From: Raillietiella orientalis
Lineage: Eukaryota
Direction of reading: 5' to 3'
Assembly: GCA_036172245.1 (NCBI GenBank)
Contig: JAYWIR010000037.1
Span: 1,922,001-1,986,000 of the forward strand
Length of the DNA stretch: 64,000 nt
The notes below the pieces were generated by a model. It searched no databases and was not told the origin of the DNA. It worked only from the letters and a program-made list of their open reading frames with translations. The position numbers and the translations under genes were made by a program. How positions within the stretch are numbered: the first letter of the stretch is position 1; each line of letters opens with the position of its first letter. Shown here in pieces: positions 3,001 to 45,500 of the stretch.

Positions 3001-3400
3001 TCCTTGGCCTTGCCGGATATCTCGGAGGTCGGTTCCAGCTTTAGCTCTCTGAATTCGAAAACACCCTACCTCTCATGGCAGAAGTACCGCTTTTAGAAGA
3101 ACTCAGCATTTAAACCCGACTTATAAGGCTGTATTACCTCCCCTCCTTTCCCCTTTTTTCTCTTCTTCTTCTTGAATTCACGACAAAAGAGACGTCACTT
3201 AATGGTACTTGCAGAGAAAGAGCTACTCTGCTTAGGAGGAGCTGCTGTAAAGAAGCAATTCCTACGGCCTATTAAAGATTAATCTTCGGCCATCAAAATT
3301 TACCTCCAGGAGCCATCTCATTTCTGCATCACGATGGGATAAATGGAAGACTAGCACTCCAGTTCAGATGGGTAATCAAGGGAAGACCATGCACAGAGAT
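1..3400 (-). mobile_element. Highly decayed LINE fragments (zinc-knuckle-like, endonuclease-like and RT-like segments)
   Basis: WCTVCILYNH..KREQRYVV (~1230-1320), YPTVPIFVF (~730), VEEF..LG-like (~2800); very degenerate. Confidence 0.3.
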
Positions 3401-3538
3401 CTATTGACAATTTGAATCAAACTTCTCTGAATCTTAGGGAAAAGGTCGAGATGCTCTTGGACCACTGTGAAGGGCTTTTGATTTAAATCCGTGATGTGAA
3501 ATCGATAGTTCCGTAATCACCTGATTTCTGTGTTCTAG

Positions 3539-3694
3539 ATGACTCAGTCCGCCCTCATCTATGATTCCATAGCCGCCTTGGCACTAGGTCTGCAAGCTTT
3601 GGACAGAAGTTCCGTTTTAAATGTGGCTAACTTGTCCTGCGAAGAGGAGGTACCCTGGAGCCAAGGAAGCAGCTTCCTGAATTACATCCTTTCG
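3539..3694 (+). CDS. Gene A exon: distal amino-terminal domain ([10 protein letters not shown]...[13 protein letters not shown])
   Basis: ttctag acceptor, gtaggg donor, 156 nt phase 0/0; homologous to gene B exon 55912-56055. Confidence 0.9.
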
Positions 3695-6600: not shown

Positions 6601-9600
6601 AGCTGCAAAACTCGCGTTTCCGTGCTCCTCCTGTGTGACAATGTGTTCCAGGTCGAGTTTGAAGGGTTGACTGGCCACGTCCAGTTCAAAGAGGGGAAGA
6701 GGAGCAACTTCAAGCTGGACCTGATGAGACTGAAGAACAAGAGCTTTGTCAAGATAGGAGAGTGGACGGACAGTGCAGGTCTCTCCGTAGATGACCTGAA
6801 GAAGCTGCACCACCACGACTTCAAAAACGTGACCCTGACGGTCACCACCATAATCGTGAGCAGTCCCATCTCCCTTTCCGGATCCCTTGAGGAGCGCCTC
6901 TTGCCCTACTCAAGGAAGCTCCCTACGTGATGGTCAAGGAGGACGAACGGCTGGTCGGCAACGAAAGATTCGACGGCTTCTGCATCGATCTGCTGAAGGC
7001 GGTCAGCAACCACGTGGGCTTCAACTACCGAATCTACGTCGCCCCCGACGGGAAGTACGGGATCCAGGACCTGGAGACGAAGGAGTGGAACGGGGTCGTG
7101 AAAGAGCTGATAGACAAGGTGGTGAGGGAACGCGGTTCGCCCATGCAACTCCCTCTCCTGCTATCCCTTCCGGGAACGGGGACCTAGGGACGGGGATAAC
7201 GACTCCCCCTCCTTCCTCTATCCCCATCTTCTTCCAGAAGGCGGACCTCGCGGTGGGCTCTATGAGCATCATCCACGCTCGGCAGAACTTCATCGATTTC
7301 ACGAAACCGTTCATGAATCTCGGCATCAGCATCCTCTTCAAGGTAGAGAGAGTGGGGAAGGAAGGGCGTCATTTCCGAATCCTTCCGCCAATACACCCCT
7401 CGGCGTGGCCGTAGGTCTCGGATGAAGAAAAGTCGCGCTTCTTTTCCTACCTGAAGCCCTTTGTCCTCAACATCTGGCTGTACCTGTCCGCGTCCTACGT
7501 CCTCGTGTCCGTCACGCTGTTTGCGGTTGCCAAACTGAGTCCCTACGAGTGGCCGTATGCTTCCCGAGGAGGACCTTCATCCAAGAACCCCCCACGGTGC
7601 CACTTCAACCTGTCGGGAAGCTTCTGGTTCACGATCGGGACTCTGATGCAGCAGGTCAGCGACCTCAACCCCAAGGTGAGACACGAACCCTCTCCCCCCT
7701 TGGCTTGATCCTCCGCCCTGCTTCGGGAGCACGGTCTACCCGTGGCCCCACCGGGCGTGCGAGGAAGCCGAGGTCCATGGAAGGGGACGGGAAGGCAGTG
7801 CAGAGGGGGTAGGGGAGGATGGTGGTGCCTTCGTTTCCCTTCCCCCTCTTCCTCCGCGAGAACTCGAACGCTCCAGGCTCTTCGGACGTACTGCTGTTGC
7901 AGGCGCTGTCCACGCGCATCGTGAGTGGCGTCTGGTGGCTCTTCAGCCTCGTCATCATCTCTTCTTACACGGCCAACCTGGCTGCGTTTCTCACCGTGCA
8001 GCGACTCACGACGCCCATCGAAAGGGTCGAGGACCTGGCGGATCAGAGTGCGATCGAGTACGGGATGCTGAACAGCGGGACCACCATGAGCTTCTTCCGG
8101 GTGGGTTTGCGTCTGTATTCCACCCCCATCCCCACCCCCTTTCCTCCCGCTCTCCCCAGGCGACCACTGCCTCCACCTCCGCGGGGACTCCCCCGAACCT
8201 CCTTGCTGGAAGACGGGGAGCCACCCTCTTCCCCCTTACTCCAGAGATAGGGTTACTGCCGCATACCCCTGGGCGGACTCCTCGGAGGAGGAATCCGTTT
8301 TGGACCCTCACTCCAGAGTCGTCGTCTTCACGCCCAGGTCTTCGTTCCTCCTCCAAGGAGTCCCGGCTGGGGGAAGCTCCTTTACAGGTAGCCGGCGAGG
8401 AGGAGGTCCCGACGGGAGGGTCCGCCATTTCTATAGCATTCTTCCGCTCCCTCCCGCCCTTCCTTTCGCATGGTTCCCGTCCCCCCTTCCTGCCTTCCCG
8501 GTGAGCAGTTGCCATCTCCCGCAGGACTCCAAGATAGACCTCTACCGGAAGATGTGGAGGCAGATGGAGAGCAAGGAGGCGACCGTCTTAGTGCCGACCT
8601 ACGAGGAGGGCATCCGGCGGGTTCTGCAGGGCAACTTCGCCTTTTTCATGGAGTCCAGCATGCTGGAGTATGCCGTGCAGAGGAACTGCAACCTGACCCA
8701 GATCGGAGGCATCCTGGACTCCAAGGAGTACGGGATAGCCACGCCAAAAGGTGATCCCTTTCTCCCCGGGAGTGGTGCGGGGGTGTTGGGTTGTGTCAGT
8801 GAGCGCCGTTGCACAGCTCGCAAGAGCGTGGGAGAGGCCAGGACTCATGCTTCCGTCACCCCCTTCGAGGGATCACGCGCTTCCCCGGGCAACTCGCAGA
8901 AAGTGGAGAGGACCGGTCCAGGGGACCGTAACCCACAAGTGGTCGGACCGGACGAGCTCCCCTTTGGGCGAGGACGCTTTCCCTCCGTTTCTGCCTCTCT
9001 CAGGCAGGGAATTTCCCGAAAGGGGGCTGGACTTCTCTTCCTTCTCCTCCTCCTCCTCCTCTTCCTCTCCCTCTTATTCCTCCTTCTCCGCCGCCACTGC
9101 CGTCACCGTCGTCCGGGATCGTCACTTGCCAATGGAGGTCACCCTGGGGGATCAGATAGCCGGCAGCAGCTCGCCTCAATTAGCGATCGCTAGAGGCCTC
9201 ACTGGATTGCCTTCAAAAAGTTCGGGCCAGGAAGGGGAGAGAAGAGGAAGCGGACTCCTGAAAGAGGGGACGTGTAACCCCTCAGCCTCCGCGAGCTCAT
9301 CCTACAGAGTCGTCGTCTTCACACCCATGTCTCCACTATTCTTCCGAGGAGTCCGGGAAAGAGGGACGCGGGACCCAACCTGGTCTCGGGGAAGCTGCTT
9401 TCCATGTCGCCGGCGGGGAGGTGTTCCCGACGGAAGGGAACACCTCGCCGCTGTTTCCGTGGCATCCGCGCGGGATCCTTGCTCGTGGGGAAGGAAGGGA
9501 GTGGGGATGGGAACCGACGTTCTTTCGGCAGGAAAAGGCAGAAGCCGAAGGGGTGTCGGCAAGGACCCCCTTCCAGGAGAAAGAGAAGAAGGCGTTTCGC

Positions 9601-12600
9601 CTCTTGAGTTTTCCTGGATCTTACGAAGGGCAGGGCAGGGGCGCGTACTGGGCCAAGGGGCTCGGAAGTAACCTACTGCCACCTCCCAGGATCCCCCTGG
9701 AGGGACAAGATCTCTATGGCCATCCTGAACCTGCAGGAGAAGCAGGTGATCCGAATGCTGTACAACAAGTGGTGGAAGAAGAGCAGGCAGTCCTGCAGGC
9801 GAGCGGACAAGAAGGGGTCGAAGGCCCTGGGCATTGAGAGCATCGGTAAGGAGGAAAACGATGGGGAAGGGGGGGTCGGGAGGGGGAACGAACGACTCCA
9901 CCTCCAGTCACCGAGGGTCGCAGCCGCAGCAACCCCTTCGCAGATCACGAGAGGTTTCTGGGAGCGGGAGAGAGAGAAGGGAAGTTGTCCCAGGCTGCAG
10001 GACGAGCTCTCGACCATCGAACGTCGTCCGCAGGGAGGGCGGAAGGAGAGCGGCAAGAGGAGGGGTGGAAGGGTTTCGGCGTCCGGCACTGGATCCCTCC
10101 TTCCCACGATCCGAGGGGCTTCCGGGAACCCTCCGGGTCGACTCCGGCGAGAATCGTGCCGCCGTTCGGCGCAGGGAGGGAACCTTCCTTCCCCTGGCCG
10201 CCTCTCCCATCCCCGACCACCTTCACGAAGAGGGCTTCTTCTTTCCTTTTTCCCATTGATGCCTCCTTTGAGAGCAGCGGAAGTCAGGGAGAGAGGTTCA
10301 GGGAGCATGCGGAGTGGGAGGAATGGTCCGACTGACGAAGTGACGCTTCGGACGTCCACAGGGTCTGCCGAAGTGCCACCACGTCCACAGCTGCTGCTGC
10401 TCCTTCTCATGGGCAAGACGCTGCTGAGCAAGAAAGAGGAAAGGGTGAGAAGGAGGGACAAGGGAGGAGGGGAGGCTCCCTCCCGGACAGGCCTACAGCG
10501 ATCTGCAGTGCGTCAGTGAAGTCCTGGCAACGGGGAGGGAGGCCTACCTGACCGGCGTCCGCGGGCGGAGTCTCCCACACACCCCGCGGCAGCGGCGGAA
10601 AGTTGTGTGGAAAAAAAAAAACGGCATAGCGATAGTCTACCTCCATCCACACCTCACTCGATAGTCCACGGAGCGATTGGCCTCCTACAAACAACTGAGG
10701 TCACGCTGCAGTTTTCTCAGCAGACCGATCCGCTGCCCCGAGAATCCTCGTCACCAAGGAGATGCTTCCCGCATCAGGAGCGCATGCGGACGCAACCCTC
10801 CTTTCCCTCCATCACACTCTCGGTCATTGAGTGGTGCTCTTCGTGAGCACCATCGTCCCCACCACGCCGCGGTCGCTCGCTTCCGGGCTTTTTCCTTAGG
10901 CCCATTCAACGCGATAGGCGCGGGCCTGCGAAAATCCCGCTCGGTGGCGCGCGCGCCTTCTCTCGAAGGATGTGACATTTTCTCCCGTGTGGGACGAACA
11001 CTTTGCGCATCCTCGTTCCAAGATCCGCGGATCGAAGAGGTAGAAACCTTCGAGCTCTCTGTTTTTTCCTGGAAGTCTTTCTGAGCTGACTGGAACGCGC
11101 ACGGTCTCTGACGCCCGAGGCCCTCTCGCGGCGGCTCTCAGAGGGTCGACCTCTGCGCCGAACCCCGCTCCTCCAGCTCGGTCCGTCACTCAGGCAGATG
11201 GACCGAGTTCAGAGTCGTCAGGAATAACCCTGGTACGGTGCTGAGCCCCCCGAGGCCGCCGACTGACCTCTCTGGTCGTCTGCTCGGGACGCATCATGAC
11301 GTTCGCAGAATCATTTACGTCACTGATGCTTTGAGCGCGCGAACCGATCGCTCACGACGCGACGCGTCCTTCATCTGCGGGTTGTCAAGACAACCAGGAG
11401 TCACGAGTAGATTGTGGACACGTGATCTGTATGTAGGACATAGGATTCGCAAAACCAAGCCAGTGATCCGGAACGCTCTGCCCTTCCGCAAGCCTGCTGT
11501 CAGCGGGAATATTCGACCGCAGAGTCCCCGCTTCTCTGCCGGGTGATTCTCCTCTGCACGCGTGTCAGATTGCTGCCAGCGAACGAGGAACCGAAAGATG
11601 TGTCCATCTTGCTTCTTGGAGCTCTCGCGTGCTGCTCGGAACGCGCACGACCGGATCGGACCGGAGTGCCGAGTCCACGAATTCCCCGCTTGGCGGCGCC
11701 ATTTTGTGTGCAGAGAGTGCGCTGTTGCAGGGTCAGTCCGTGGTCAGGTTTTTTCTTTTTTTTCCTATGCATCCGCCCTTGTCCGCAGATGCGTCCCCCG
11801 TGTCCTCGCCCTGAAGCCTTGCAGGTCTGCGATGGTGACTTTCTTCTGAGTTCCCAAGTCAAGCTTCCACGCGGAACGTTTCGAAACTTTCATCTGGACC
11901 AACCTGACGAACCGGCTCCGGAATAGCACGGAGAGCTCGAGGTTGCCGTTGCCAGCTCTGCGCCCTTGAGATTTCAACAGCTTGGGCGTGGCGGACCCCA
12001 AGGATCAACATCCGGAGTGCCGAACGACTGCAAGATTGCGCCATCCTCCTGCTGGAGTCGCACCACAGACATGGAGCATCCGCGGGATCGCCGAATACCT
12101 GTTTTTTTTTTTTAATTTTTTCTTTTCAATCTGCCGTCGTTCGGTGAGCCGGCGGCCAGCGGGAGCAGTGGCGCGCATCGCATAGCAACGAGAGGACAAG
12201 AATCACAGACGCCATCCTTCTGCCCCGCGCTGGTGCTTAGGACCGGCCGAGTTGGGTGGCCGGTCCTAAGGGTGGCCGCCGCCTCACGGCGGGCAGCCAT
12301 CCAATCGCGGGCTAGGAAAAGAGGGTGCGCAACCTTTCCAAGTGGCCTCTGGCAGAGCTCTGTTTTAAAAAGATCGGAGGTGCAAGTTCTCGTCAAGCTC
12401 GGAAGGGCGCCTGGCACATGATGAGAAGGGAGTGACCGGGAGGAAGGTGACCCAGAGCAGTTCCGCATGAAGAAACAGGGAATCAGGTGGAGGGGACGAA
12501 AGAAGAAATCAGCGCGGAAGAGGTCGAAGGGCGGCGGGAGCACCATTGGATGCTTCCTTGAAGCCTGTGTCGTCAGTGAGGTTCATCAAGGGAGGAATGG

Positions 12601-27299: not shown

Positions 27300-28067
27300 C
27301 GGCTGGCATGCTCACGGGTCCAGGGAGACAGAATCGTCTTCAGCGCTAGGTGGAAAAACTCGACAAGAATCGACACATTCAGTAAAATGTCTGTTATTTG
27401 AGGAGAAATTTCGAGTGTTTATTTGTAATAAAAATTGCAGCTTATCTCCGAGAGATTACAACATCGCAAAGCACTCGCTTCTGATCGATGCACGCCTTCA
27501 AAGTGATGCCATCAACTCGTTTCTATGAAACGCAGATCGGTCTCATTTTGGAATATGCGATCTGTGAACCACTTCGGGATGGCATCTGTGCTTACTTGAG
27601 ATGCACAAAGAGAGTTCTGCACAAATGGGGACCGCTGCTGCGTTGGCACGCTATCGGAGGCTCGATGCAAATCAATTTATGGGAGTAGAACAACAAATCG
27701 TTCGTTCCCAGTATTGGGAACTTCAGGGTTTTGTCAATGAGCGAGTCAGTCTTTAGCATAAGAATGGAAGATAAGGTATTCTAGTACTCCCCTATTACCC
27801 ACAATGGGAACCAGAATGTGCAGACTTCCTTCAGTTTCTACGACGAAGCGTTTTTAGGCTGGACGCTGGTTCGAACCACAGCAATGCGTTGCATGCCAAA
27901 ATTCCTCAGCCAGTTCGGAGCAGATTGCCTTCTGAAAGATGCTCAACAGTTAGTTTGCAATCATAACAGCTTCTACGTCCACAACCGAGAGTTTGCATTC
28001 CTATGAAATGCTAAAGAACTAATGACTCCACAGATGTCTACCAGAAAAAAAAAAAAAAAAAAAAAAA
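27300..28067 (+). mobile_element. CR1/L2-like LINE 3' fragment followed by a poly(A) run
   Basis: FYETQIGLILEYA (LY...RP.LEYA-like), decayed NRV..WN-like motif near 27985, A-run 28044-28067. Confidence 0.5.
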
Positions 28068-28779
28068 TGAATGTGGCAAAGGTTTCTTTCTTTACGTAAA
28101 GGAAACTTGGTGGGAAGCTGAAGATGCTCTTCAGCTTCCCCTATCGCTTGCTATTTCTCATTCGGAAACAGAATGAATCGCGTGTGATGAAGTGGCAACT
28201 CAATGTGACGATAACGAATCGGATATCCATGGAAACTTATGATGGTTCCAGCCATGTTTACAAGTGCAAACGGTGGTCCAGAAAATGGAAAATTTCAAAT
28301 GAGACACATAATTTCGCAATCATTGCATGGTCCTGTTTCTAAGCAGCTTGATGATTCTTGTCTGCGTCAACCCTGGATTTCAAATGGCAGAGCCCAAGTG
28401 CATTTTTGTTAGAGCTGTCGGCTTGAGTTTGGGACAGTGAAGGTGTGCATGGAAAACTGTAGAGAACCGTATTTGCTCCATCGTTGCAATCAATTGATAA
28501 TCAATCAAAATGATTGTAGCATCGGCTAGATGCGTGAAATTGGCTTCTGCGGCCAACGGGCAGTGCAGAAATGGACTTGCCAGAACATGGTTCAGGAAGC
28601 AGAATAACCGTGGAACCAATAGGAGAGCAATCTAAGATACGTAGTTACCAATTGTATGAAAAGGAAAATGTTCCCGAAAAAACTCCTGAACTGCCTTAAG
28701 GAAATGACATCTCGTACGCAGACTGAAAAGTGAAAAACTCGAATTATCACATGATCATAATAGTCTGAGGACCCTTAAA

Positions 28780-29640
28780 ATGGAATGAAATCAACGACTT
28801 GACCTTTTCTGCTATGAAAAGTACAAAAGCTGCTGTCGCAAGAGAGAGAACCAGTCTTCCACCACTTCGGATGTCGCAGAGAATTACGCTTTAGACTTCC
28901 TAGATCCCCACTGTCAATCATTCCAGCTTCCAGTAGTTTCTTATCCGAGATAGATTTTTCCATGTCCTGAAAGTACTGAAACTCGTTGCACACAGAGGTC
29001 AACCATCCAGAAAACTCATGAGTCTTCTGTTGCTACCGAAATCTGCTTTTGGAACATCATTTCCGAGAATGCTCACGTCAGTGTTTTGGGGTGGGCGGGG
29101 GGCAGAATGATGATTATAGCTGCAAAAGGTGTGTTGTTGCTTAGCAAACTCGAAAAAAAAAATGCTCGAGAATGCTTTCTTCATGATGGTCCATTTATTA
29201 CTCTGAAGACTGTTCCTGCATCAAAGGTGTCGAGTTTTCTATGTTTAGAAATGGAAATGAATTCTCCTGAGTTTGAAGCAGCATGGCTCCATGGATAAAC
29301 ACGGGTGCCCACGAGCTGCACATACGATAGCAGGAGCGGAAAAGAGTGTGATCCCGGCGTTTCAGCTCTGTCAAACCTCCTCTTGCAAACTCCTCTTGCA
29401 ATTTGAGGAGCAATTCCGCCACCCTTGACGAGCGAGGAAGTTTGCATAAGGTTAGCAATTAGGGAGGCTGCTGCGGGAAACATTAGTCGTCCAATTTTCA
29501 GTATCCCTGAAATAGGTTATGTGACTATCATAGGGCTCTCCGAATCGTTGCAGCTTTCCACAATCATTCCAAGCAATCCTCTCTATCAGTATTCCGTCCA
29601 GAACCCTTCAGCCACAATGACGCCTTTCCTTCTTTGCGCA
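28780..29640 (-). mobile_element. Decayed LINE APE endonuclease
   Basis: KGGGIA and VGTRVYPW motifs in order. Confidence 0.45.
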
Positions 29641-30318
29641 TTCGGCCATCACTCTTTAGTTCCATTAGTTTTAGAAAGTCAGCAAGAATCTTGTGAGTGC
29701 AGTTTTGAAGCGAAAACTAAAATAACTAAGCACTTTTTCAAGCAATGCAAATGAAAATGGCGTTCCTACTAAGAAAATCTCGCTTTCAGCTAATAGTGTG
29801 GGGGTATTCCTATTTGTACCAATTTGTTTCTCCTTGCATCAGAAGATTAGTTACATTCTGAAATGTTCCCCGTTCTCACATTCCGGCTTCTGAGATTAAC
29901 AAAAAAAAAAAAAAATTGCAGCATTTCACAGTTTGTTGGCGAATCATCTGTCGTCGTCAAGTGCTTGTTGCTGTGGTCACCCGAGCCAGAAAGCATTTGA
30001 AGTATTTTAGATGCCGGGCGAGTTTTTGACTTATTCCTCTATGAAACCTATTTTCTTCGAGGCGCGGTTAACACGCAAGATATGTCTGGAACCTCATGTG
30101 TTTCATTTATTGGATTCCTTTCAGAACTTTTGGGTTCAAAAAAATGAATTCTGGATGGCTGTGTACTTGAAGAGCTATTCTCCGGAGAACATCCTCACGG
30201 TTTCCAAACGGAATAAACCACACGCTTTACCCATGACCGGAAGACACGAATATTCTTAAGACTATAAGGTACCCAAGCAGCCGCTTCATTCTTTTCTTGA
30301 AAGGAATGCAAGGGTCCC

Positions 30319-30540
30319 TTAAGAACAGAGCTTCTTCCTCTCGTGTTCTCTTGAAAGCAAGAAGTCAACTGATTGCTTCTGAGGTCGCAGACCATACGTT
30401 GCAGCAAAACTGCCGATGTGCCGTGGAAAACGTGAGAGCCTCGACGTGCACATCGCTTCTGGCCGAAGGGAGTCACAAACCTCAGCTTTACGTAAGAAGC
30501 ATTGACACTTCAACGAATCCAACATTTTCGACAACTGCAC
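30319..30540 (-). CDS. Gene B putative terminal exon: cytoplasmic tail ([12 protein letters not shown]...KKLCS*)
   Basis: gctgacttag acceptor 192 nt after the M4 donor, phase 0, 73 open codons then TAA. Confidence 0.65.
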   Translation of the reverse strand: MQLSKMLDSLKCQCFLRKAEVCDSLRPEAMCTSRLSRFPRHIGSFAATYGLRPQKQSVDFLLSREHERKKLCS

Positions 30541-33500
30541 CTAAGTCAGCAAAAGGTGTAATTATTCAAAGCAGGACTTGGCTCCGAAAACTTGCAGTTT
30601 CGACAAGTATCTTAAAAGCTGTAACTATAAGGAATGGGTTTCCGATTTTTCACGCAAGAGTATGTGCCAAATCTGGCTTTAAAATTGAAGCATTTTTTTT
30701 TTTTTTTTTTCAAATAAAAATAAACTCTTTACCTTTTCCTGCTTTTTGGAATGCCAGAAAAATTCACACACAGCAATTATGAAGGCAATCGTCAAGCCAG
30801 CTACAAGAACGATGAAAATTCCTCCTGAAATTACATGCTTTAATTCAAGAGAGCTGGTTTTCAATAGCTGTGATTTCAATACTGTCTGTCCTTTTGTACT
30901 TTGGCTGATTTTTCACGACATTTTTTCCCTGACCAGGAAGAAATTGAAAATGAATGCTGTATGCCTAGCAAAAGGGTGTCAAAAATTGAAAATGCCTTTC
31001 GAGTTATAGGCTAAAGCAAATGGCAAACTCGAATACACGACTGTCCTCGTCACCAAACGAATTCTAGGACAAAATGCAAGCAGTAGGGCTGGGAAAGGCA
31101 CCGTCAGAGTAGGAACAAAGGTTGGTGAGGACACTGGACACTCCTGAAGTCTCAGCTGTTCTTTGAAAGCGCTACAGCACGTCGGGCAACCACTACTGCT
31201 AAACCGGCAAGAAGACGCTGCTAAAAAGGAGAGGAATAATCTATTCCCTGAATCCAATGCACCATTGGATTTTCGTAGATCAGCGTTACACTTGTAAATT
31301 CGAACTGCACATGAAATCATCTGCTCGCTGATTTATTTCCAGAATTGTTTCTTTTGGGGACTCCAGAGCGTCTGTGTGAAAGAAGAAAAGTGGTTAACTG
31401 AGGAAGGAATATGAAGTACGACTCCTTCGAAACGTCAGAAGCATTTCTGAAATGATGCTGAGAATGCAGTGTCACTGATTCTTCGTCGAGAGATTTAAGA
31501 ACTCTACCCCGATCCTACACATAGTGAGTTGCGTAGGAGTCTCTTCTTCGGTCCGGCGTCATTCGATTTTGATGCTCATCGCGAAAGCTTCCGTCTTGGA
31601 AGTTTCAGACCGTCGGATTCATAAAGAATAATTCTTGAGGAATAATTCAGGTAAGGTACAAGAACCAACTTAAACTGTTCAGTTTCCGAACTGAAGATTC
31701 GTTTATTGCCTTCTTGCGTGGGAAAGCTTGAGGGGAATACGAAGCTGCTATTTGGTCTTTCAGTCTGAGGCTATTCCGCTTTTCGCCAGAAAAGAAATAC
31801 GTTGAAAAAAAAAAAAAAAAAAAAAGTCATGGAAATAAACAATCTGATCAAAGGACAGAAGTACTGATATCAATTTCTCTCTGTCTGTCGTTGATATCCA
31901 AGGATACTTGGAGTGGATTTTCAACCGACAGCAGTAGTATCTATAAGTGCAAGTACTTACCAATGTTTTCATTCCCTAAAGCACTGGCGACATGATGCTT
32001 GCTCTTGTCTTCTCGGTGACAAATGCTGCCAGTATTCTTCCACCATTTATTATACAACATCTGTATAACTCCTTTTTCTTGCAATTTCAAGATTGCCAAC
32101 GATATTTTCTCATTCCATGGTGATCCTTCGAAAAATGATAACGAAAACAGGCATTACTTTCTGGTGAAACTTTCAAAACGCCGGCAGAAGCATCTAAATG
32201 CTTTTCGATGGATTCAAATTCGAATCCCGGAAAGTTACAGACTCATCCAGCAACTGGGGAGTGTCAACTGGTGTAGCTGACACTTATCAGCTGATGGAAA
32301 ATTGGTCATGCAATACCGCATCTAAGCAATTTAACATTGCGAAAGCATTAGAGATGTAGGAGACGCAACCCTGGGGATCAGAACAGAAAGACGGACATTG
32401 CATGAATTAGTAATCATTATCGCGGTAGATCGCAATCATTTCCTTCGCCAATTAAGTGTGAAGAATAGTAGCCAATGACAGCGACTTTTTGAACTCATTT
32501 CTTGAGAAGAAATTGCTGCGTCCGGAACGCAATGCAGTAATCTCTAGAGACTTGTGTTCTCTCCTGAACTTCATTTATCCGGAATCGGTTAACGGAAGGC
32601 ATATTTTGAGCATGAGATGAGCTTACCTCAAAATCCGAATCACAAAAATTGCGCCTTGGGGAAGCTGCAACACGGACACAACTCCCTCAAAAGATGAATG
32701 CATTCTCAAGCGGCACTTCAAACTTTCGAATCACGCCAGCATTAGTTAGGCATTTGTCATGATTGCAACTCATCGAATTATGATGGCTGATTGAAATTGT
32801 ATAAGGAACCAGTGGGAAAAATTTCAAAGTCCAGCATGTAAGAGCTTTGGAATGCTGATGTGACGTAATGTCTGCGGTTTGGAATCTTGAGAAGCAGAAT
32901 TCTGGATCCGACTTGCAGCCGGAAAACAAGCAGTAAGGATAATCGGAGTATTCAATGAAGTGGTGAGGTAATTAAAGGTAGCAAAGGTACCTTTAATTCT
33001 CACATCTTTCTATCAATCATATTCCCCTCCCTACACATCCTTTACCTCCCTAACCGTCAAATCAATCTGAACATACGAATATTCAGCCCTACCGCTTTTT
33101 ACAGGGTCGGTGATGTTGGGGAATCTTCATAATTGGAACATCATAAATATTACAAGTTATGTATGCACTTATGATGAGCAGAAGAGTAAAAAAATACCGT
33201 GCAAGAACTCTTCGAACGAATCCGTTTCAAGTGGCACACGAAAATATACGAAACCAATTCAAGACGGCTGAATTTAGCAAAAGGCTGAGTTCTGCCTTCA
33301 TGTCGGTCGGATTCAGATTCAGGGAGGTTGAGAGAGCATGCCGTTGTATACCGTTTTCAATCTGATCTCTACGAGAGAAGAAAAAAAAAAAAAAAAAAAA
33401 AAAAAGGCCATTTTCCGCTCATGCTCAGCTTCTGAAGCATTTCTGTTTTACACCACGGACTTCGTTTCCGTCTTTGTTCATTCCCAAGGTGAAATTTTCT

Positions 33501-36500
33501 GTTTTGTGTGTTCCGTACGCTTGCTGTACTGCAAATTTCCTACCATGAATTGCGCGACCGAAGGCAGGAATGCTCGCCTGTTTCTACGAGGAATTGGCTT
33601 CGAGTTTCGGACACGGAACTGACCGATTATGGATTTGAGGCGCTTGAAGTGCTTCGGATAAGAAATTGTGGCTCCCGGAAGAACTGGGAGCTTCCAGCTT
33701 CACGCGACACAGTGGATGGAGAGGCCGCTTATCGAATTCATTGATTAAGAAAACAAAATAAATAAATCGCATCTCGCACTGCTCAGCAAAGAATGAACAT
33801 CCGAGGGCTAGGAATCCGGTTGCCCGATCCAGAGAACAAGAAAGTTTGGGGAAAGGCGTGGGAGGATCAAGAAAAAAAGAAAAGAAAAGAAAAGTGATTT
33901 GAGCAAAGCCTTGCAGCTGTAGGATGCATGGATGGAAATTAGAATCGTCAACGCAAGAAGATCTGAAGACCGGAACAAGCTTTCCGGAAGTGAAACAGAA
34001 AGAATTTGTTTTGGCCGACATTTTTGCAGATGACTGAATCGGACTGAGAAAGAATTCAGAGGTTTCGAAAGTCAAACTCTGATACTTTCCCATCAGCATC
34101 TTGCTTGAACTTTTCGCTCATCAAAGGAAGCTGTGAATGTATTTGTTTCAGTTCAAAAAAGGAAGAAAGTCTACTTGCCTCTGGGAGTAGCGATCCCATA
34201 TTCTTTGGAATCCAGAAGGCCTCCAATTTGTGTGAGGTTGCAGTTCCTTTGCACAATGTACTCCAACATGGTGTTTTCCATGAAAAAAGCGTAGTTCCCC
34301 TTCAGGACTCTCTGTATCCCTTCTTCGTACGTGGAAACGAAGACCGAAGGTTTCCGATTCTCCATGACGTTCCACATCTTGCTGTAGATCTCGATTTTGG
34401 AGTCCTAAAACGGAATTTGATGCAACGAGTAGCAGCCGTGTCCAGCAGCAGTACTGCTTGCCGCTGGCAAAAAAACAGCACCCGGTTCCCGCATTCAGGA
34501 AGGTGCGCCAGCTGCAAACTTCCCAATGCGTTTTTTCCGAGCAGGAACTCGGGATGCACAGAACGCCTGCTCGGTCACAGAAGAATTGCCGATTTCGGAT
34601 GATTGGAAACGGTTAATGTGCTCTTTAGACGGGAGCGGGAAGATGTTTTTAAAAAGCACGTACGCACACGCAAAAAGTGTTCAATGCGACACACTTGGCA
34701 GCATGCTGATTCCTCTTTGGAGGGATAAGTGGTCAGTTCGGAAAGCCTCATTAGAGCTCTTCACGGGCCTGGGATCTCGAAGTGGAAACTACGTGTTTCT
34801 CGTGTGCCGGCTCCATCGGTTTCATCCTTTCACAGCGCATTGATTGAAAGAGTTGAAATTACCTATCTCGACCGAATCACAAATCAATGAATTCATCTCG
34901 GTTTACTGCTTTGATGATAGTAAGTGCTTTAATAGCTGATAAGTAGTGTTTCAAATACATGCCTGCCAGATATGTCTAGGTTTCATGCAGCATCCAAGCA
35001 GATGTTTACATGATTTTCGGTTTGAAAATATCCATCGATGTATTTAAAGTTTGCATAGGTATTAGTCATAAATGACGTTTTATACGAAGCGACTGCACAG
35101 GAATTGCACAGGAATCGAACAGGTTGTCGTTCCTTTTTCCAAGTACTTTTCATCTTCATTTCATTGCTGTGAAATCCAGTTTCGAATAAGTCAGGGACCG
35201 TGTTTTTAAGAGCGAACACCTCATCCCCCCAGAATAAAGCCTTTTCTTTGATTATACTTGAGATTGTTTATCTTTCATTCCTCAGGCAGCGTTCTACATA
35301 AGGTCATCACTTCATCTGAAAACCGGGTGGTCGATGTTAGGTGAGATGAAATGAAATGCTGTGGTTTAGGAATGATCTGTTCTTTGAGAATTGTTCGCAA
35401 ACACAGCATTGACGGAATCCTGATCGTGCCTTTTCACTGAAGCTGAACACGAAAATTAAGCAAGCTAACAGTCAAAGTGTCGCGCATTTAGATTCGAAGC
35501 TAAGCAGCTTCTAGACCAAGCTAAAAAAAAGTGCTCAGGGAGCAAACACGAGGAAGAAGCTGCTTCAAATTAAATCCGAGATGAAAGCAAGCTGGACTCG
35601 AGAAGACGGAATGATGCTTACAAGTGCACAATTGATTCCTGCTTGATTCATTTCAGAGAAGATCGAAACTGGATGAGATGCCGTTCCTTGCAGAATGAAC
35701 TCTAAATGAAAGGAATTGGGAACTTTTCCTTTCTGATTCTGTCACTGATTTCTCTTAGAGGATATGTCAAAATAGTTAAAACATTCTTTTCAAGAAAGAA
35801 CATTCGTTGCCATCCATAGAGGAGATACAAGAAATCACCATAAAAAGGGTTCCTGCAAGAAACCCACCAAACATCACATGGAGAAGAAAGAATCATTTGA
35901 AGAACGTTGTCTGCTGAGCAAAAACCACAGCAGAAGGCGGAGAAGAACCCCAAATTGATATCGGAGAAAGTGAGAAGCCGAATGAAACAGCTGCTGAGAG
36001 TGCAAAAATCACAAGAGTGACGACGAAGCAGAATTCATAGGACCAACTGAAGGCAGGTTAGAGGAATACTGTGAATATGAAGAATGGAAAGAATACAGGA
36101 TATTTCAAGTGGAAACAGGATCACGACCCGAGGAAATCAAAAAGGTTTGCCACGTTGCATTGTGAATACATGAGCAGCATCATATATCGAAAACATGACA
36201 CTACATCTCATTTTCGACTAGATTATTGTAAGGAGATGGCAATGAAAGAACTGAAGATTCCTGGATTAGCGGGAGCAATTAACCCTCGGGTCTCGTTAGT
36301 TGTGGTTAATCTGATTGGTCATCAGTTGTAGCTGTCTTATGCAGGACTACACACTATGACCAGCCAGACTTATCATGAAGTTCAAACTACTCAATAAGTT
36401 TGAAGTTGCTCAAATTTGTTCATCTACAGCAGTTGGGGGCAGAGTTGGTTGCAGCTGCAACAGTCAAGAGTAGCAGCAGCATTGCAGTGTTTTAGTTTGT

Positions 36501-39500
36501 AAAGCATATCTCTGAAATGGCATGATAAGGAAGATGCTTATCACAGAACATTTGCACGCCAACATGGCGAACAAAGGATAAAAGTAACAGAAGGAAGGAG
36601 TAGGCCAGGAAAATGTTATAAAACCAGCACGTGTGGTTGAGCATAATTGAGGCATGGTCAGTGCTGATCAAGGACATTGACTGCTGGTGTGCTATACAAA
36701 AATGTGCAAAGGGATACAGGAAAACCTTCCTTCTGTTGTTTGTTTGATATCTCTGTGCACCCCGAAATTGTTTTATATCCCCCAATTAGTGGTACAATGA
36801 CGAAAAAAGGTATTGCCATTTTTCGTCTGGACGTTGCAGAGGAATTATTAATGCAAGAGTTCCTTCCTCGTGGACACCCTCCTCATAAAAGACGCACCAA
36901 CTCACTTCCCAAAGCACATTTCACCAACTAGCAGCAAAAGACATCCTGCTAGGAGGTGTCATGTGTGTTATACACATAAGATTGCCATCTAAACCATAAC
37001 CAATATTATCGTTTACTAGCATGTTTTGAGAAAAGTAATCCTTCATTCTTATTTGAATTCTTTCTTTTCTTTTTTCCTTTTTTTCCAATCTCATTATGCT
37101 CTCCAATGCATTAGGATTCTGTGCAATAATTTTTTCCCCAGTTTATTGAATTGCAAACTGAATTACGTTGTTTCCTTTGTGACCTCTATATTGAGATCAG
37201 CAACAAAATCAAACGATTTATTTATGGGAAATAGTTTTTAATTAAATCATGTGCCAAGTGATTAAACGTAGAAATGACTATTTTTCATCCAAAAGGACAC
37301 TTTAGCACAATAATAAGAAACCTGATGTTATAAGGCATCCTTCATTCTTATGACTTTATCTCTCTTTGGAACAGAAGTTTTTGAGACGTGTCTAAGAGAA
37401 GGCGCAAGCCTCGAAATAATGGGGATCGACGTTTCTAATAGGTTCTGGCTCTACAACACTCTCAGTGTGTGTTGAACAGAACCCAGAAATTGGTGATCTT
37501 AACAGCACTCACCCTGAAAAAGCTCATTGTCGATCCAGCCTGCAGTGTACCATATTCGATATCGTTCTGTTCTACCAAATCAGCAGCTCTCTGAATCGGC
37601 GTTGTCATTCTCTCAACCGTCAAGAAAGCAGCCAAATTAGCTGTGTATGAGGAAATGATAATCAATGTGAAGAACCACCAGATGGCGCCGACCATTCGAG
37701 TTGAAGTCGTCTGAAAGCAGAAGGTTTTACTTTCAGTGATGTTTGATTTGAAAACACGAAGGTTTTTCTCGCGAAGCATGAACTCAATTGATGTTGCTCA
37801 TATGATCAGTTTCGAGCTAAGAGTGATGCGCTTAAAGAAGGCTCTTTCTTTGATCAGTTGGACGTTTTCTTAGCCAAACAGCAAAACAGAAAGGTGCAGT
37901 GGGAGTTCCTATTCGAACTGATGGGGGACTTGGTGAATTTAACCGTGATTAGCTTTTCTCTTAGAGAGTTCATACGAAAACCTGTATTAGTAAAGAAAAA
38001 ATAAACACTTCCAACAAAAATATCACGTAAACTACCTTTGAAGATTCAGCAAATCCAAAGGCCAAAGATGAAACAAATGATGCAAAGAAAGATGGGGAAA
38101 GCGAATGAGGACTTAAAGAATATGCAGAAGACCACAAAGTGTGCTCAACATCTCCGTGGTCTTTTGCCAAATTAATGTTCTTATGGAGCCCTTAAGAAAT
38201 ATACAAGATTATAGGATCGCAAATGTACCTTACATTCCTCATCATTCAGGAAAATTCGATGCTGAGTTAATCTTTAAGTAAAGTAAAACTTTGTTCCAAC
38301 GCTGAGAAGCAGTTTTTTTTTAGACAACAGTAAAAACTTGCTGTTTCTTTTAAGGAGTCCTGCTTGTCGGATTTGCAACCATCACTTTTTTACGGAACTC
38401 ATCTCAAATGTAAGAGCCGATCGGATATAAAGAAAGAACAAATAAGAGAAACAAAAACGCATTGGTGGTTCTAAACACATCCGTCCATCCCCATGTCATT
38501 TTTCTGCGTGGTCACCATTCCTTTCCAAACACCTTTGACACCGTGGAAAAAGCCTTTTTGAAACCCTTTGAGTAAAATTCCGCCGCCTGGGTGTCAGGTC
38601 GGTTCAGAACTGCAACACTTTCAACTCCTCATCACTTTCCTCGAATCGTTGAGCCACTCCTGAAGATGCGAGAAGGAAGAAGTCACTGGGCGGAGCTGTA
38701 AAAAGGGTGATCAAAAAGTTCTCATTTGAATTCCTGAATTGCCTGGAAAGTGCGGACAGCAGTGTGTGGGGCCAAAGGGGTGTGCTTCCGGTGGACTTTA
38801 TGGAACAACCGTCACTTTGCAAGTCTGCTGTGAAGCACTTTCCAAACTGCGGCGGGCCATTCAGAACCGACGACGTGGAATGCTGAGGTCAGGAATGGTT
38901 CTCCTCCTCCACGACAACGCGCGCCTTGGCAACAACACATGCTGTCCGCACATTCCAGAGGGATTCGGAAATTCAAATGGGGACTTTTCAATATCACCCA
39001 TTCTTACAGTCCCGCCCGGTGACTACCACGTCTTCCTTCTTGCATCTCCAGAAGTGGCTCAACGACTCGAGGAAAGTGAAGAAGAGTGGAAAACTGCAGT
39101 CCGGCTGAACTCCCAGAAGGCAGAATTTTCAAAAAGGCTTTTTCCACGGTGTCAAAGGTGTTTGGAAAGGAATGGTGGCTGCGCAGAAAAATGACATGGG
39201 GATGGATGGATGTGTTTAGAACCACCAATGCATTTTCGTTTCTCTTATTTGTTCTTTGAGCAGTTCTCTGTTTCAATGGCAATTTCTTTAAGCCCCCAAT
39301 GGGCTTGTTTCTAGAAGGATGTTTGCTGAAAATAAAAAATGTACAAATCCAGAAAAGCACTTAGAGGTGTAGAATATTAAGGGAAGCAATTGGACACGTC
39401 TTGAAGCCTTTGTGCTTGACTGGAAAAAGTGAGCAAAGGAAAAACACGCAAGTGTTAATCAACTCAAAGTGGATGTGTCAAAGTTCTCGTCAAGGCCATT

Positions 39501-42500
39501 GCTATTGTCAGCAGCCATAAGCTATATTTCTCTTTAAGACATACTGATTCTAGAAGAGTTTAAAGAAAAGGTTAGAACTTAAAGAATTTCTGTGTACCTT
39601 GAACACCCGAATTCTTTAAGATAGCGCGAGTTCAGCATGAGCCAACATGTCGCACCATGCAGTATCACGACGAGAACCGCGGTTTCTGAACTCATTTTGC
39701 TACTACTTGTGCCTAAGAAATTCTTTTGCACGTGACCAATTGGGAAACTTGAAATTTTAGTGTTCACTTTTATTTGTTTGGTTACTGCTTGCGCGCTGTT
39801 CTCTCTGTCTCAAAGATCAGGGAGAAAAGTTCTCGAATCCTCCAACTAGCATCTATTGATTTTTGCTATCCAGCCCGTACCGAACTTACAAATTAGCTAA
39901 TTCGCATTTCTTAGCTGTGATCTCCTTCTACGTACCTTTGGATTGAGATCTGAGCCTTGTTGCATTAAAGTTCCTATGGTAAACCAAAAGCTGTTTCCCA
40001 AGTTGAAGTGGTTTTCATCGGCATTCTTGTTCACGGAGCTGTGCCAGTCTTGTAAGCTGATTCTAGCCACAATAAACATGGTAATGGAAACGAGAATGTA
40101 TGCTATAAGTGCGTATATCCAGATTTCCAGTACAAACGGATTCATGAAGGAGAATATCTTGGCTCCCTCTTCAGTTGGACTCTGAAAAAGGCTGCATCAG
40201 TGTCAATGATACGAGAGAGGCATTTTCAAAAATTGCTTAGAAAAGTGCTGTGGAAGGAGTGGTCACTCAAAAATACTGAGACGCTGTTACTTTGCTTCGT
40301 CTTTTGATTGACAGCGCTTTTTCAAAGATGAAAGCAGCAACCCCGAAAGACATCACCACGAAAGTCCGGAGGTAATATTAACGTGATGCATAGCGTGCAA
40401 TAGAGACCGTTTTGAATTTAGACTTCAAGGAATGAAAGAAAAGATCATTTTAGAAAGTAGAAAAGTAAATGGATATCTCCATGCTTATCTGAGAGTATTG
40501 AACAAATCGTAATTCGGAAGATTTGGTACAGTGCCTCGAAGCTTCGCATTTATTGAAAAAACATGAAAAGTGTGGTCTAAACAAATGCCAAGTTTATTTT
40601 GGTGATTTTTGATTCACCTCTTCCAATATGAAACTATGAATAGCAATCTGAAGGAGGAGAACAAAAAAAAAAAAAAAAAAAATCGCATGAAAGCGCCATG
40701 CATAATAAAAAATGTGGACCTTCTCTGCCAGAATAGCGCACTTTCGGTGCCGAATGTGCTAGGTGATATCTTAAGATAGCCTGAATTCAGCATGGGCGAA
40801 AACGCTGCACCATTTCAGTACCACAGTGAGAACCACGGCTTGATGGACTCATTTTGCTAATAGCTCCATCTAAAGAATTCTTTTCTACGTGACCACATGG
40901 GAAATTGAGACCTGACTCTTATGATGACGCATGTGATGGCTGCAATGACCCACCGATAATGAATACCGGCAGTGGAACAAGAGCACGGATGGACAGATGT
41001 GTGCCGCTGGACAGTAGGCAAACATTGCTGTGCAAGAATTGTACGGGCATCACCAGACGAAACGTAAAAATTGACATGCTTAGAGGAATAAACAGGTTTG
41101 ATCCAAAACACCCAGAAACAGAGATATCTTTGTGCTTATGTGCAGTGCTGCCACTGCACTTAAGTGGCGCGAAATGGGCTATGCTTGTTTAATTAACCCG
41201 AAATTACAGAACCACTTCGCGTTCCGAAAGTCGGCTGTTGTTCTGGAAAATGGGAGATTACAAAACCCTAGTAGCGGCAGTGGGGGAATGGGGAGAGGTC
41301 ATCAGTTTAGCACGACATTCTGCCCAGTTAGTTTAGCAATGGGTTATAGATAAGGCGTTTGAGAGCCCTCGATTTACATTCGTTCCTGGGAACAAACCTC
41401 GAAAAAAAAAAAAAAAAATGAGGAACAGCATCACGAGGAGCAGAACCGAATCATCGAACAGATTTCGGCTACGTGCTTCGTCACCAACAGAATGAAATTT
41501 GTAATATCAGTTTGTTGACCTTCAGGAAAATGAAGAGTTCTCATCAGTTTGAAGCACTGTTCGAAACTTACTGAGGCTGAAGAGACTCTCTTGCACGAGG
41601 GAGCCGAAAACAACTCATAAAAACAGCAGAGGTGTAGCCAAGTGGATCGGCTTCATCTCAAAGGATCCCTCGGTGTCCAAATATGGCAGCTGGAGGTATC
41701 TTGGTATACGGGCTAGGTGGATCGCATGGACGCAGCAGCTCAGAAAGAGCATGGGGTTCTAGAAAGCTTTCCGTTCACAAAGCCTCTAGATCCACGGAGA
41801 GGTGCCACACTTGAACGACGAGAAGAGATTTCACGCATTCAGAAACAGCCAGAGACAACCTGAGCGGCTGGAGGAGGAGGCTGAGGTGGAAAGGCAGCAC
41901 CTCCAGAGGACTCAGTACACCGATGTAAATTTCAACGAATCGTTAATGGACGACGAAGGACTTTTCAAAGCAACGAGGAATGAACTTTGTTTAGCTACTT
42001 CGACAGAGCGGATGCTGGTGGAAACGAAAAAAACGGACAACCAGTGCTTCACTCGAGAAGCGCCTGATATCAGAATAATTTGTAAAAGTAATGACAGCCT
42101 GTATTGCATAAGGCCAAAGTCAGCAATAAGACGCCACAGCATCAAGAATTTTCTCGGCACCAAGAGTCAGACTCACGTATTGGATCACTTGAGAATCACT
42201 TCAGCGTAGAGATCCTTGCATGCCATTAGAAAGTCCATTGATTCTCTTACCTACGGAGGCAACTGGAGAGCAAAATCCTGAAGGGATTCTGTGACAAGCA
42301 GCAATGCTATGTGAGCAAACAAATGACTAATGAAGACTGTTTCAGATGGCACTGGGATTCCTCTACAGAGAACAACGGAATTCGAAACCAGACACAAGGA
42401 AACGAAGCTGCAGGTGATCCGGTGTTTCCTACATGCTTCAGAACTCGATGGTAATCTTGTCTCTGCCTCAAAGATCCGGTGGAAGACAAACTGTGTTTTC

Positions 42501-45500
42501 ATTAGATGCTGCTTCCATCCGAGGTGACTCACTTCCAAGGCTTAGGGGGAAAGAAACCAAATCGATTCAGAAACAAAATGAAGGCATTCTGTTTAGAGTT
42601 CTAGTCCCAGTCAGAATAGGGAAAGCATCTGCATGCATATCTCTTTCTTCCCTTGCAGTAAAGTATTTGATGCCCACTTGCAGCTGACCGTTTCAGAAGA
42701 ATCTTTGTCAAACATGCTGTTGCGACCAAATGCCTTCGTTCTCAAATCCAAAGTCCCATTGAGGGAGGAAGAATTCATTGAGGATGGCTGTTCGAAGATG
42801 CACGTTATTGCTCATCTTCAGTTAAAGCAAACAACTAGAGTCAGTGGTCACCAATAAGGTTCGGAAAACTTCATCAGCAAGGCAGATTAGAGGATGAAGA
42901 CAGCACATCAACGGAGATGTCAAGAAGTGTACATTGACATCGTAGTTGCGCCGAAGCACATCAGAGAGACGTAAGTCATGCAAACCAATGATGTAAATCT
43001 CTCACCGCATCAGTTTCGAACCGGATTTACTTCTCAACAGAAATGCAAATCAGTTGGATGCTAATGCACATCTCTTGCAGAAAAAGAGCGTTCAAGACCG
43101 AAGTATTTCGCTTCAGGAATGCCAAATCCTCTTCAGTTTTATATGCCACCTTTGCCGTCGACTAATCACTCGAAACAAAATTCGGGATTTCAAAAGGAAC
43201 AACTCTGTCCACGTTGGCGGTCGTGTGGATACGGTCTCCACGAGTGCCGGCAAACGCTGCTTGTCCGAGCCATACCTGGGGAAGGATCGACTCCGAGAAA
43301 TGAGTGAGTCGTACGTTTCGAGTCCTCCCTCCCCCACAAGATGACGCTGGTTGACCTATTCGGACCCGGCACCGGTGGAAACCGGAAACCGGATGCTCCC
43401 GTTGACTGGACGGGATTGCGAGCTGAATTCCCGGGGTCCTTCCAGGAATGCCTTCTGGATTCGCCTCCAGCTGTGAAAATAAAGCCTCCTACCATGGAGC
43501 TGGTTGATGCCACCCTTAGGGAGGTTGTCTCTCTGAAGGGCGCTGCTCCCTTCGGGGAACGTCCTTCAGAGAAATTCGGAAGCATCTCTTCGGGGTTCCC
43601 TTCAGAGGAGTAACAAGGAGCGGTTCCCTCAGGAGAAGAAATTCCAGGAGTGGATCTTTTCCGGAGGGTCCCTCCGAAAACAGCAATGGAAAGGTTCCCT
43701 TCGGGGCTCCCTCCCAAGCGTAAGAGGAACGGACTCCTTGCTCCGGAGTCTTCCTGGATTCGTAGGAATTATCTCCCATAAGTTGAAGAGTCAACACGCA
43801 CTCTCGGATGACGTAGAACAGTGGTAAAGTGCTTTGCAAGCCCCCTAGGCGAACGTTCCTCGAGTGCTTAGCAAACCAAAAAAAGGCTTGCAAGATTGGG
43901 ACCGCAGGCATAGTCACTGTAAATTTTCTGGATGGACCGAAGGCTTTAGTCGTGGGCCAGGAATCTGAATGCATGTGCAAAATAGAGCTCACTGGAAACA
44001 GCTGATGGAAAAATCAATCATTTGGGCTGAGCTCACGATGTGTATGGAAAAAATCCGCATCATACAACTTTCATCGACTTTCATTTCACCAGAAATCGTC
44101 CTGGGAACCTGCAAGTTCGATTACGGTACCGCGTTTGCTGGATTCAAATGATTTGCATTTCGGTTGAAAGAAGGGAAAATCATTCATCCCAAACGAGCAT
44201 ACAGCATTCGGGAATAATTTTGAGTTTCGTATGATGACGAAGAAAAAGTTCGCTTCTTACACGGAAAAGGATGCTTATTCCTAAGTGCATGAATGGTTTG
44301 GTGAAGTCGATGACCTCGTTCCTGGCGTACAATATGCTCATGGATCCCACCGCTAGATCAGCCTTCTGAAAAGAAAGAATATTACAATGTTCGTCTTGCA
44401 AAATTACCTTCATGATGTACACAAATTTCACGATTGTTTCAAAATTTCTTTTCAAGTCTTTCCTGATGCACACAAGTTTTGCGTGCCTCAGGGTAGGCTG
44501 CAAACACATCATCTTCAGTGAATGCAGACACGCTTCATGGGATGTTATTTGGTATTTGCAGAAATTATTGGGTGTGATAGGCATGGAAATTTCTTTGAAA
44601 TGTTCGCTCAGATCTATTGCGCTGTTTCCAGGCATCACATGGTCGCTGTGAAAATGATGGACACGAGGGGTGCACTGGTTAACACGGTACTCCATGACAT
44701 TCAAGTCATTTTTGAATTATTCTATGTCATGAATGGAGGCGTTTCTTTGGTGATGGAAAAAAGCTTGTTTTTTCTTGAAGACCCACGAAGGAAAACCCGA
44801 CTTGCATTTCGTAAAGTTGGAGGTGAAAGTCAGATTCAAATTCGAGGTCATATCTTTGTATTTCTCATAAACCTTATTTCTCAACAGTCCAGTGCCTCAA
44901 CTTATCAGGGCTATTCCTTCGATTTTTTCTTCCTTTTGGTTCTTCTTCTTAGTTGTCAGGAAATTCCCCCTTATTCATATAAAAATATGAGTTTACAGCT
45001 CTGTGGCTCCAAAAGAAGGAGGGTATTGAGAAGTTATCTATTATCACCCTTGTATCCACAATAAATCATCTCACATGCACATATGAGCATCGTTTTAGCA
45101 TCTTACTGTTGCATTTGTCAGTCACATACATTTATAATGCTTAGAATGGAAATCAACCATCTCACTACTCATTCCTTAGAAATTACTCTTAATTTAAGAA
45201 TCTGTGTCTATTCTCTCTACATTATCTGAAAGAGAATGTAGATATTTCAGAAATAAGTGGCTAGCACTCTACTTATTTCTGAAAGATCTGATCACGGGAA
45301 AAGCTGATGTGCTCATGTAATTATTTTCTTTTCTCATTAACTGTGATTTCCTTATTGACAACTGATTGCCCACAAAAGGTGCGATGATGGCTCTATAATT
45401 TCGAAATTCGCTGAATCCCCTCTTGTTAGAGATGGGGTGAGGGAACGGATTCGGGACTGTTGATCACAAACGCCAGGGTTGGTTTCCTGACTATTCTGTC

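Follow-up and report, generated by a model that had tools for sequence, protein, structure and literature searches.

Can a kainate-type receptor subunit carry valine in place of the glycine that lies two residues after the Q/R site, and what kind of channel would it then form? The question is raised by a stretch of 64,000 nucleotides from Raillietiella orientalis (assembly GCA_036172245.1, contig JAYWIR010000037.1, positions 1,922,001 to 1,986,000 of the forward strand; hereafter the window, in whose own numbering all positions are given), which contains two paralogous kainate-type ionotropic glutamate receptor (iGluR) genes in convergent, tail-to-tail order, gene A on the + strand and gene B on the − strand. 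Few pore residues of AMPA and kainate receptors vary as little as the Gly after the Q/R site, where a human disease mutation is also known, and gene A has Val there. Gene A looks like a new natural variant within a known channel type, in which a rare change at a near-invariant filter Gly sits in an otherwise functional-looking gene. The reading that we prefer, tentatively and at somewhat short of an even chance, is that gene A encodes a conducting kainate-type subunit with weak polyamine block and is a real lineage-specific pore variant. If the base is true, a constrained natural Val receptor would offer a ready-made experiment on the role of this Gly in filter geometry, polyamine block and Ca2+ permeation, and would show pore diversification inside the arthropod kainate-receptor expansion; if it is an error or a rare allele, the window holds just two ordinary paralogs.

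The valine codon in gene A

The original prediction, made from the letters of the window, was that gene A reads MQQVSD where gene B reads MQQGSD, and both codon strings were found. The gene A string, ATG CAG CAG GTC AGC GAC (7646-7663, +), lies near the 3′ end of exon 7415-7675, with the Val codon GTC at 7655-7657, T at 7656, and Val as residue number 304 in the gene A model built from the window; its local sequence is CTG ATG CAG CAG GTC AGC GAC CTC AAC CCC AAG/gtgaga, with the GT donor right after 7675. The gene B counterpart (39965-39948, −) reads ATG CAA CAA GGC TCA GAT CTC AAT CCA AAG/gtacgt. The pattern ATGCARCARGNNWSNGAY had two exact matches in the window (7646-7663, +; 39948-39965, −) against 0.00 expected from 100 shuffles, and the substitution is confirmed as present in the assembly. 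Searched against Protein Data Bank chains with phmmer, the gene A exon aligned with GluK2 (8gc2_A, E 1.3e-15) over 'lmqqgselmpk', and in this alignment the Val pairs with the MQQGSE Gly of GluK2, at +2 from the Q/R-site Gln. With respect to the filter pattern M-Q-Q/R-G-[S/C]-[D/E], gene A agrees at the Q/R site and at the acidic +4 position and departs at the Gly (V304). GTC differs from the gene B codon GGC by a single base, G to T, and by parsimony the Val is derived on the gene A lineage through that one change (GGC to GTC).

Conservation of the filter glycine

The Gly in question is the equivalent of GluA2 G588 and GluK2 G592, and its very strong conservation, which had been assumed, was borne out. 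In a MAFFT alignment, the Val column holds Gly in 19/19 full-length homologs and in gene B. Among the first 155 database proteins, 121 recognisable pore motifs had Gly at this position in 116 cases; in all 277 database proteins, the motif was recognised in 257 (20 gave no match), and the pore motifs comprised 255 with Gly, six without and none with Val, the apparent 'V' counts of this motif scan being M1 segments caught by the loose pattern rather than pore loops. The six non-Gly pore motifs had E, T and S, plus three resembling one-residue deletions. In a scan of public metagenome contigs, the back-translated Val motif occurred at no locus and its Gly counterpart at 28. In the accessible portion of a preprint, G588, C589 and D590 of GluA2 are classically counted in the selectivity filter (bioRxiv 10.1101/2020.06.21.162735). 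A literature search for natural variation at this Gly found only mutagenesis and disease papers, and the text of PMC12377769 contains neither 'G588' nor 'G609'.

Gene structure and selective constraint

The reading frame of gene A, earlier judged intact, is so within the window: nine open exons were placed, 8/8 introns are GT-AG with consistent phases, and the 565 codons of the in-window model are stop-free up to the terminal one. The gene A exons are as follows.

3539..3694, + strand: first gene A exon of the window, C-terminal part of the amino-terminal domain
6652..6855, + strand: end of the amino-terminal domain and linker (PF01094 weak, E 0.0019)
6915..7118, + strand: ligand-binding lobe S1, first part (PF10613, E 2.9e-23, 82.6 bits)
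7238..7342, + strand: S1, second part, with the ligand-binding Arg R203 (PF10613, E 5.3e-12, 46.3 bits)
7415..7675, + strand: pre-M1, M1 and M2 pore loop (PF00060, E 2.9e-12, 47.1 bits); 87 codons that begin and end in phase 0, flanked by an AG acceptor and a GT donor
7903..8100, + strand: M3, with its motif intact, and start of S2 (PF00060, E 1.3e-19, 70.9 bits)
8525..8750, + strand: S2, with Glu E419; ends in phase 1
9690..9845, + strand: end of S2 and pre-M4 linker
21926..~22110, + strand: M4, about 12 kb downstream of the preceding exon

PF10613 and PF00060 scored above their curated cut-offs (30 bits and 30.8 bits) on the expected exons of gene A; the amino-terminal domain, of which only the C-terminal end lies in the window, reached 17.7 bits with PF01094, under the cut-off of 25.4 bits. 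Bases 1-3500 did not yield the roughly 300 N-terminal residues that make up most of this domain. From 21926 onward, the M4 exon aligns with residues 954-1002 of the homolog P0001; its 3′ end is uncertain, as the exon may close with the stop near 22110 or at a possible GT donor that follows ...AGCACT.

The two paralogs share 59.9% identity over 526 aligned residues, and their identities to the wasp homolog are 60.3% for gene A and 64.1% for gene B. In a maximum-likelihood tree of 21 rows, which comes from a quick search with the careful search unfinished, A and B are sisters (SH-aLRT 98) within a clade of P0001, P0089, P0002 and P0033 (SH-aLRT 99), with branch lengths of 0.58 for A and 0.49 for B. 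Relative-rate tests of the Tajima type with four outgroups counted 73/58, 60/59, 57/52 and 66/52 unique changes in A/B (chi2 <=1.72, not significant), and among the 97 columns in which 18/19 homologs or more agree, gene A departs at nine and gene B at seven. Nonsynonymous divergence between A and B gave pN 0.26 and dN 0.32, while synonymous sites are saturated (pS 0.84), so that dS is undefined and a dN/dS ratio is not given. Set against a saturated pS of 0.84, a pN of 0.26 is a clear sign of long-term purifying selection. The suggestion that gene A might be under general relaxed selection was not upheld by the departures (9 vs 7 of 97 columns), by the rate tests or by a dN of 0.32 with pS 0.84.

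Gene A could alternatively be a duplicate that only recently became free of constraint, either an early pseudogene or a gene broken outside the window, with Val as an early damaging change. Consistent with this are the N-terminal residues not found in the window, a public run search that listed no RNA run, and the slightly larger figures for A in departures (9 vs 7) and branch length (0.58 vs 0.49). We consider it quite improbable, in view of the 565 open codons with all splice sites canonical, the non-significant relative-rate tests, a pN far under pS, and the ligand-binding and gate residues tested, all of which are intact. Since rates are equal, departures few and key residues retained, gene A is, on these comparisons, not a generally degenerating copy.

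Retained residues and clustered channel changes

The residues expected of a working receptor are kept in gene A. The S1 Arg is present as R203 (R in 19/19 other homologs) and the S2 Glu as E419 (E in 18/19 others), which we take to be the Arg that holds the agonist alpha-carboxylate and the Glu that holds its alpha-amino group. Within M3, the SYTANLAAF gate motif of gene A matches the majority residue of the 19 homologs at 9/9 positions. The Q/R site is Gln (Q302; Q in 18 and R in one of the others), and the +4 position is D306 (D in 15, E in two, N in one and G in one of the others). With its glutamate-binding residues and M3 gate motif kept, the subunit should still bind agonist and gate.

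The departures of gene A from conserved columns gather in the channel domain. Seven of the nine (F235Y, N285C, N291G, G304V, F323L, T325S and I327V) lie in the stretch that opens with M1 and closes with the M3 motif; N285C and N291G occur in the same exon as Val (7415..7675, +), and F323L, T325S and I327V, together with S370T, in exon 7903..8100 (+). This amounts to 7/38 conserved columns in M1-M3 vs 2/59 elsewhere (Fisher p = 0.026, a modest value from a post hoc test on nine sites), and the corresponding counts for gene B are 2/38 vs 5/59 (p = 0.70). G291 of gene A aligns with GluK2 N579. The pattern suggests a concerted remodelling of the gene A pore, as opposed to a single hit.

A relaxed tblastn search with six relatives found no second, Gly-bearing alternative M1-M2 exon of gene A in the window. 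At the gene A Q/R codon no editing-type hairpin was found, no arm pairing with 7646-7663 and the fold z-score being −0.37; A-to-I editing would in any event not convert GTC to a Gly codon. Among the relatives, P0001, P0006 and P0007 have tandem M1-M2 pore exons, one of LRQGSG type with Arg at the Q/R site and one of MQQGSD type, which look as if gene prediction had joined mutually exclusive exons.

Predicted function of the valine-bearing subunit

That the substitution affects the pore is plausible from mutagenesis at the same Gly (PMC2217257, PMC6626132; both papers are cited here for their accessible portions); the original prediction had offered altered permeability, loss of conduction and a modulatory role as alternatives. 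In rat GluK2 (GluR6), G592A was among only 3/37 alanine replacements that lost polyamine block completely (Kd(0) > 100 µM), G592W showed outward rectification, N579W had strongly reduced polyamine block, and currents were recorded from all three mutants (Panchenko, Glasser and Mayer 2001, PMC2217257). The same aligned Gly is concerned, in a kainate-class pore with an acidic +4 position like that of gene A; the GluK2 mutants, however, are engineered Ala or Trp replacements in a vertebrate homomer, whereas gene A combines a naturally occurring Val with further changes in the pore. The G592A/G592W precedent favours an altered channel over a dead one, and because GluK2, a kainate receptor, is taken as the nearer precedent, the conducting reading was ranked first.

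Under this reading, gene A would be an intact, selectively constrained kainate-type subunit, sister to gene B among the sampled relatives, and the Gly at +2 from the Q/R-site Gln would have given way to Val in the line leading to A. The Val lies where the M2 loop is extended and builds both the narrow filter and the polyamine site, and other channel-domain changes go with it, including Gly at the GluK2 N579 position. By analogy with G592A/G592W, the channel would probably conduct but bind cytoplasmic polyamines poorly; its current-voltage relation would then be close to linear or show outward rectification even though the Q/R site has Gln, with possible changes in conductance or in the passage of divalent ions. 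The sequence shows the substitution and its setting; how it acts on the channel, whether it is fixed in the species, and the expression of gene A and any co-assembly with gene B are matters of inference. Pore-loop changes are described as common in iGluR evolution, where they tune polyamine block and Ca2+ permeation (PMC12226733, accessible portion), and an arthropod-specific expansion of kainate receptors has been described (PMC6307864, accessible portion).

Q/R-site editing and Arg-type alternative pore exons are routes to non-rectifying AMPA and kainate receptors. Gene A would share their predicted outcome, namely less polyamine block and altered permeation arising from the tip of the M2 loop, and differ from them in acting at the +2 position, by a genomic substitution in a separate paralog. 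A bolder form of the argument, which we hold possible but doubtful, is that gene A is a naturally evolved, genomically hard-wired 'polyamine-insensitive' subunit, in which Val and the co-adapted N291G (start of the pore helix) and F323L, T325S and I327V (lower M3) reshape the inner filter. Channels that contain it would pass current at depolarised potentials despite the Q/R-site Gln. Evolution would thereby have reached non-rectifying receptors of the AMPA/kainate class by a third route, the other two being RNA editing of the Q/R site and the Arg-type alternative pore exons of other arthropods, and this route would work via the tail-to-tail pair A/B as a heteromer.

A further alternative is that gene A is silent or dominant-negative (modulatory), with Val collapsing or distorting the filter, so that homomers are non-conducting and heteromers, for example with gene B, carry reduced current, the gene being kept for a regulatory or non-ionotropic role. 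Support comes from human GRIA2 p.G609R (mature G588R; Salpietro et al. 2019, PMC6626132), in which the same filter Gly is replaced and which marks the position as functionally critical. In the accessible portion of that study, GluA2 G609R nearly eliminated current and acted as a dominant negative, the current upon co-expression with GluA1 falling below the level of GluA1 alone, although the protein reached the surface. Gly in 19/19 homologs also argues for a strict structural need, and the retention of binding and gate residues, with constraint, is as expected of a subunit that still assembles. On the other hand, Arg brings a charge and a bulk that Val lacks: G609R is a de novo pathogenic allele of an AMPA receptor, associated with a neurodevelopmental disorder, whereas gene A has an uncharged Val and signs of long-term constraint. 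Furthermore, Ala and even Trp at this Gly gave currents in a kainate receptor, the nearer relative (PMC2217257), and the accompanying changes in M2 and M3 would fit a remodelled pore better than a dead one. A silent or dominant-negative subunit therefore seems unlikely.

Points against the conducting variant and the state of base 7656

Several observations weigh against a conducting, lineage-specific variant. As GluA2 G609R nearly eliminates the current, a substitution at this Gly can kill the channel; Val is not among the residues tested in the accessible portions of PMC2217257 and PMC6626132, and being beta-branched it may fit less well than Ala. Both the clustering test and the tree carry the limits given with them above. 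Recent loss of constraint in gene A is possible because the A-B synonymous sites are saturated, and the gene could be broken in the ~300 N-terminal residues that were not found in the window.

The remaining points concern the base itself. The public run search listed one DNA run (X1, share 0.11, Logan contigs). On 6650-8770, X1 supplied three contig pieces (6818-6968, 6959-7109 and 8126-8158), of which the first two cover 6818-7109 of gene A without a difference, and the third is a piece of 33 bases with three differing letters from a contig that continues unlike the window. No X1 contig was found over 7147-8069, which leaves 7656 uncovered and the assembly as the source of the base. Nor did four protein searches find an ortholog of gene A that could show Val to have persisted over time. 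The M1-M2 exon gave five matches against longer proteins (best 55% identity), two against proteins of similar length (<=53%), and 743 in a representative library at E <=0.001, where identity was <=62% among the best 150; the M3 exon gave 2715 matches against longer proteins, with identity <=76% among the best 120, mostly vertebrate GRIK4/5.

With neither an ortholog nor a read over 7656, T7656 may be an error of sequencing or assembly, or else an allele of the sequenced individual that is rare and perhaps deleterious; the norm of the species for gene A would then be MQQGSD. GTC is one base (G to T) away from the gene B codon GGC, the X1 contigs leave the site uncovered, and Val occurs in 0/261 pore motifs and at no metagenome locus. 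We nevertheless regard this explanation as quite unlikely: the site lies outside any homopolymer or repeat, the two X1 contigs on gene A (6818-7109) match the window perfectly, and gene A differs at six further conserved positions of the channel, more than one error could account for.

Closest known receptors

The closest known relatives are arthropod kainate-type iGluRs annotated by NCBI as 'glutamate receptor ionotropic, kainate 2-like', from the wasp Prorops nasuta (P0002) and the barnacle Pollicipes pollicipes (P0001), which have the same domain order, exon collinearity and pore context as gene A and to which it is 60.3% and 57.0% identical, respectively, over ~540-560 aligned residues. 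They differ from gene A in having Gly at the +2 position. A second difference concerns exon number, P0001, P0006 and P0007 having two tandem M1-M2 exons and genes A and B one each.

Gene B and organization of the locus

Gene B reaches from beyond 61.5 kb to ~27.8 kb on the − strand. Its features are as follows.

61473-61411 and 61226-61125, − strand: amino-terminal-domain pieces
27848..56055, − strand: exon span with the same exon pattern as gene A
56055-55912, 54513-54313, 48848-48645 and 44365-44261, − strand: exons within that span
39936..40181, − strand: M1-M2 exon with the canonical MQQGSD and Gly codon GGC (PF00060, E 2e-16)
37710-37513, 34404-34179, 32125-31961, 30824 onward (M4) and a C-terminal exon ending near 27848, − strand: further exons within that span

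The intron after exon 34404-34179 of gene B has an apparent non-canonical GC donor, G/GCAAGT (34178-34173, −), and the homologous junction in gene A reads G/GTGATC. The last exon of gene B has its stop near 27848, and no homologous C-terminal exon for gene A turned up within the window. At ~12 kb, gene A's last intron (9846-21925) compares with 59-2957 bp for its others and contains repeat-like open reading frames, such as 18335-18985. A dispersed repeat occurs in introns of both genes (6140-6349, +; 38414-38575, +; 39004-39360, −); the copies at 6140-6349 and 38414-38575 have a common open reading piece, of which 39004-39360 has a close variant, and a Pfam scan of the copies at 6140-6349 and 39004-39360 gave no match.

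The base composition of the two genes was also recorded. The core of gene A (6600-11500) forms a GC-rich island, with a GC content at third codon positions (GC3) of 0.78 in its exons and introns of 59-939 bp with GC 0.59-0.65; gene B (30000-56000) has a GC3 of 0.51 and introns of 1.1-5.5 kb with GC 0.40-0.45, and the observed/expected CpG ratio is ~0.8 in both alike. The G-to-T (Gly-to-Val) change runs opposite in direction to the GC enrichment of gene A. The convergent 3′ ends of genes A and B are only ~6 kb apart (22110-27848).

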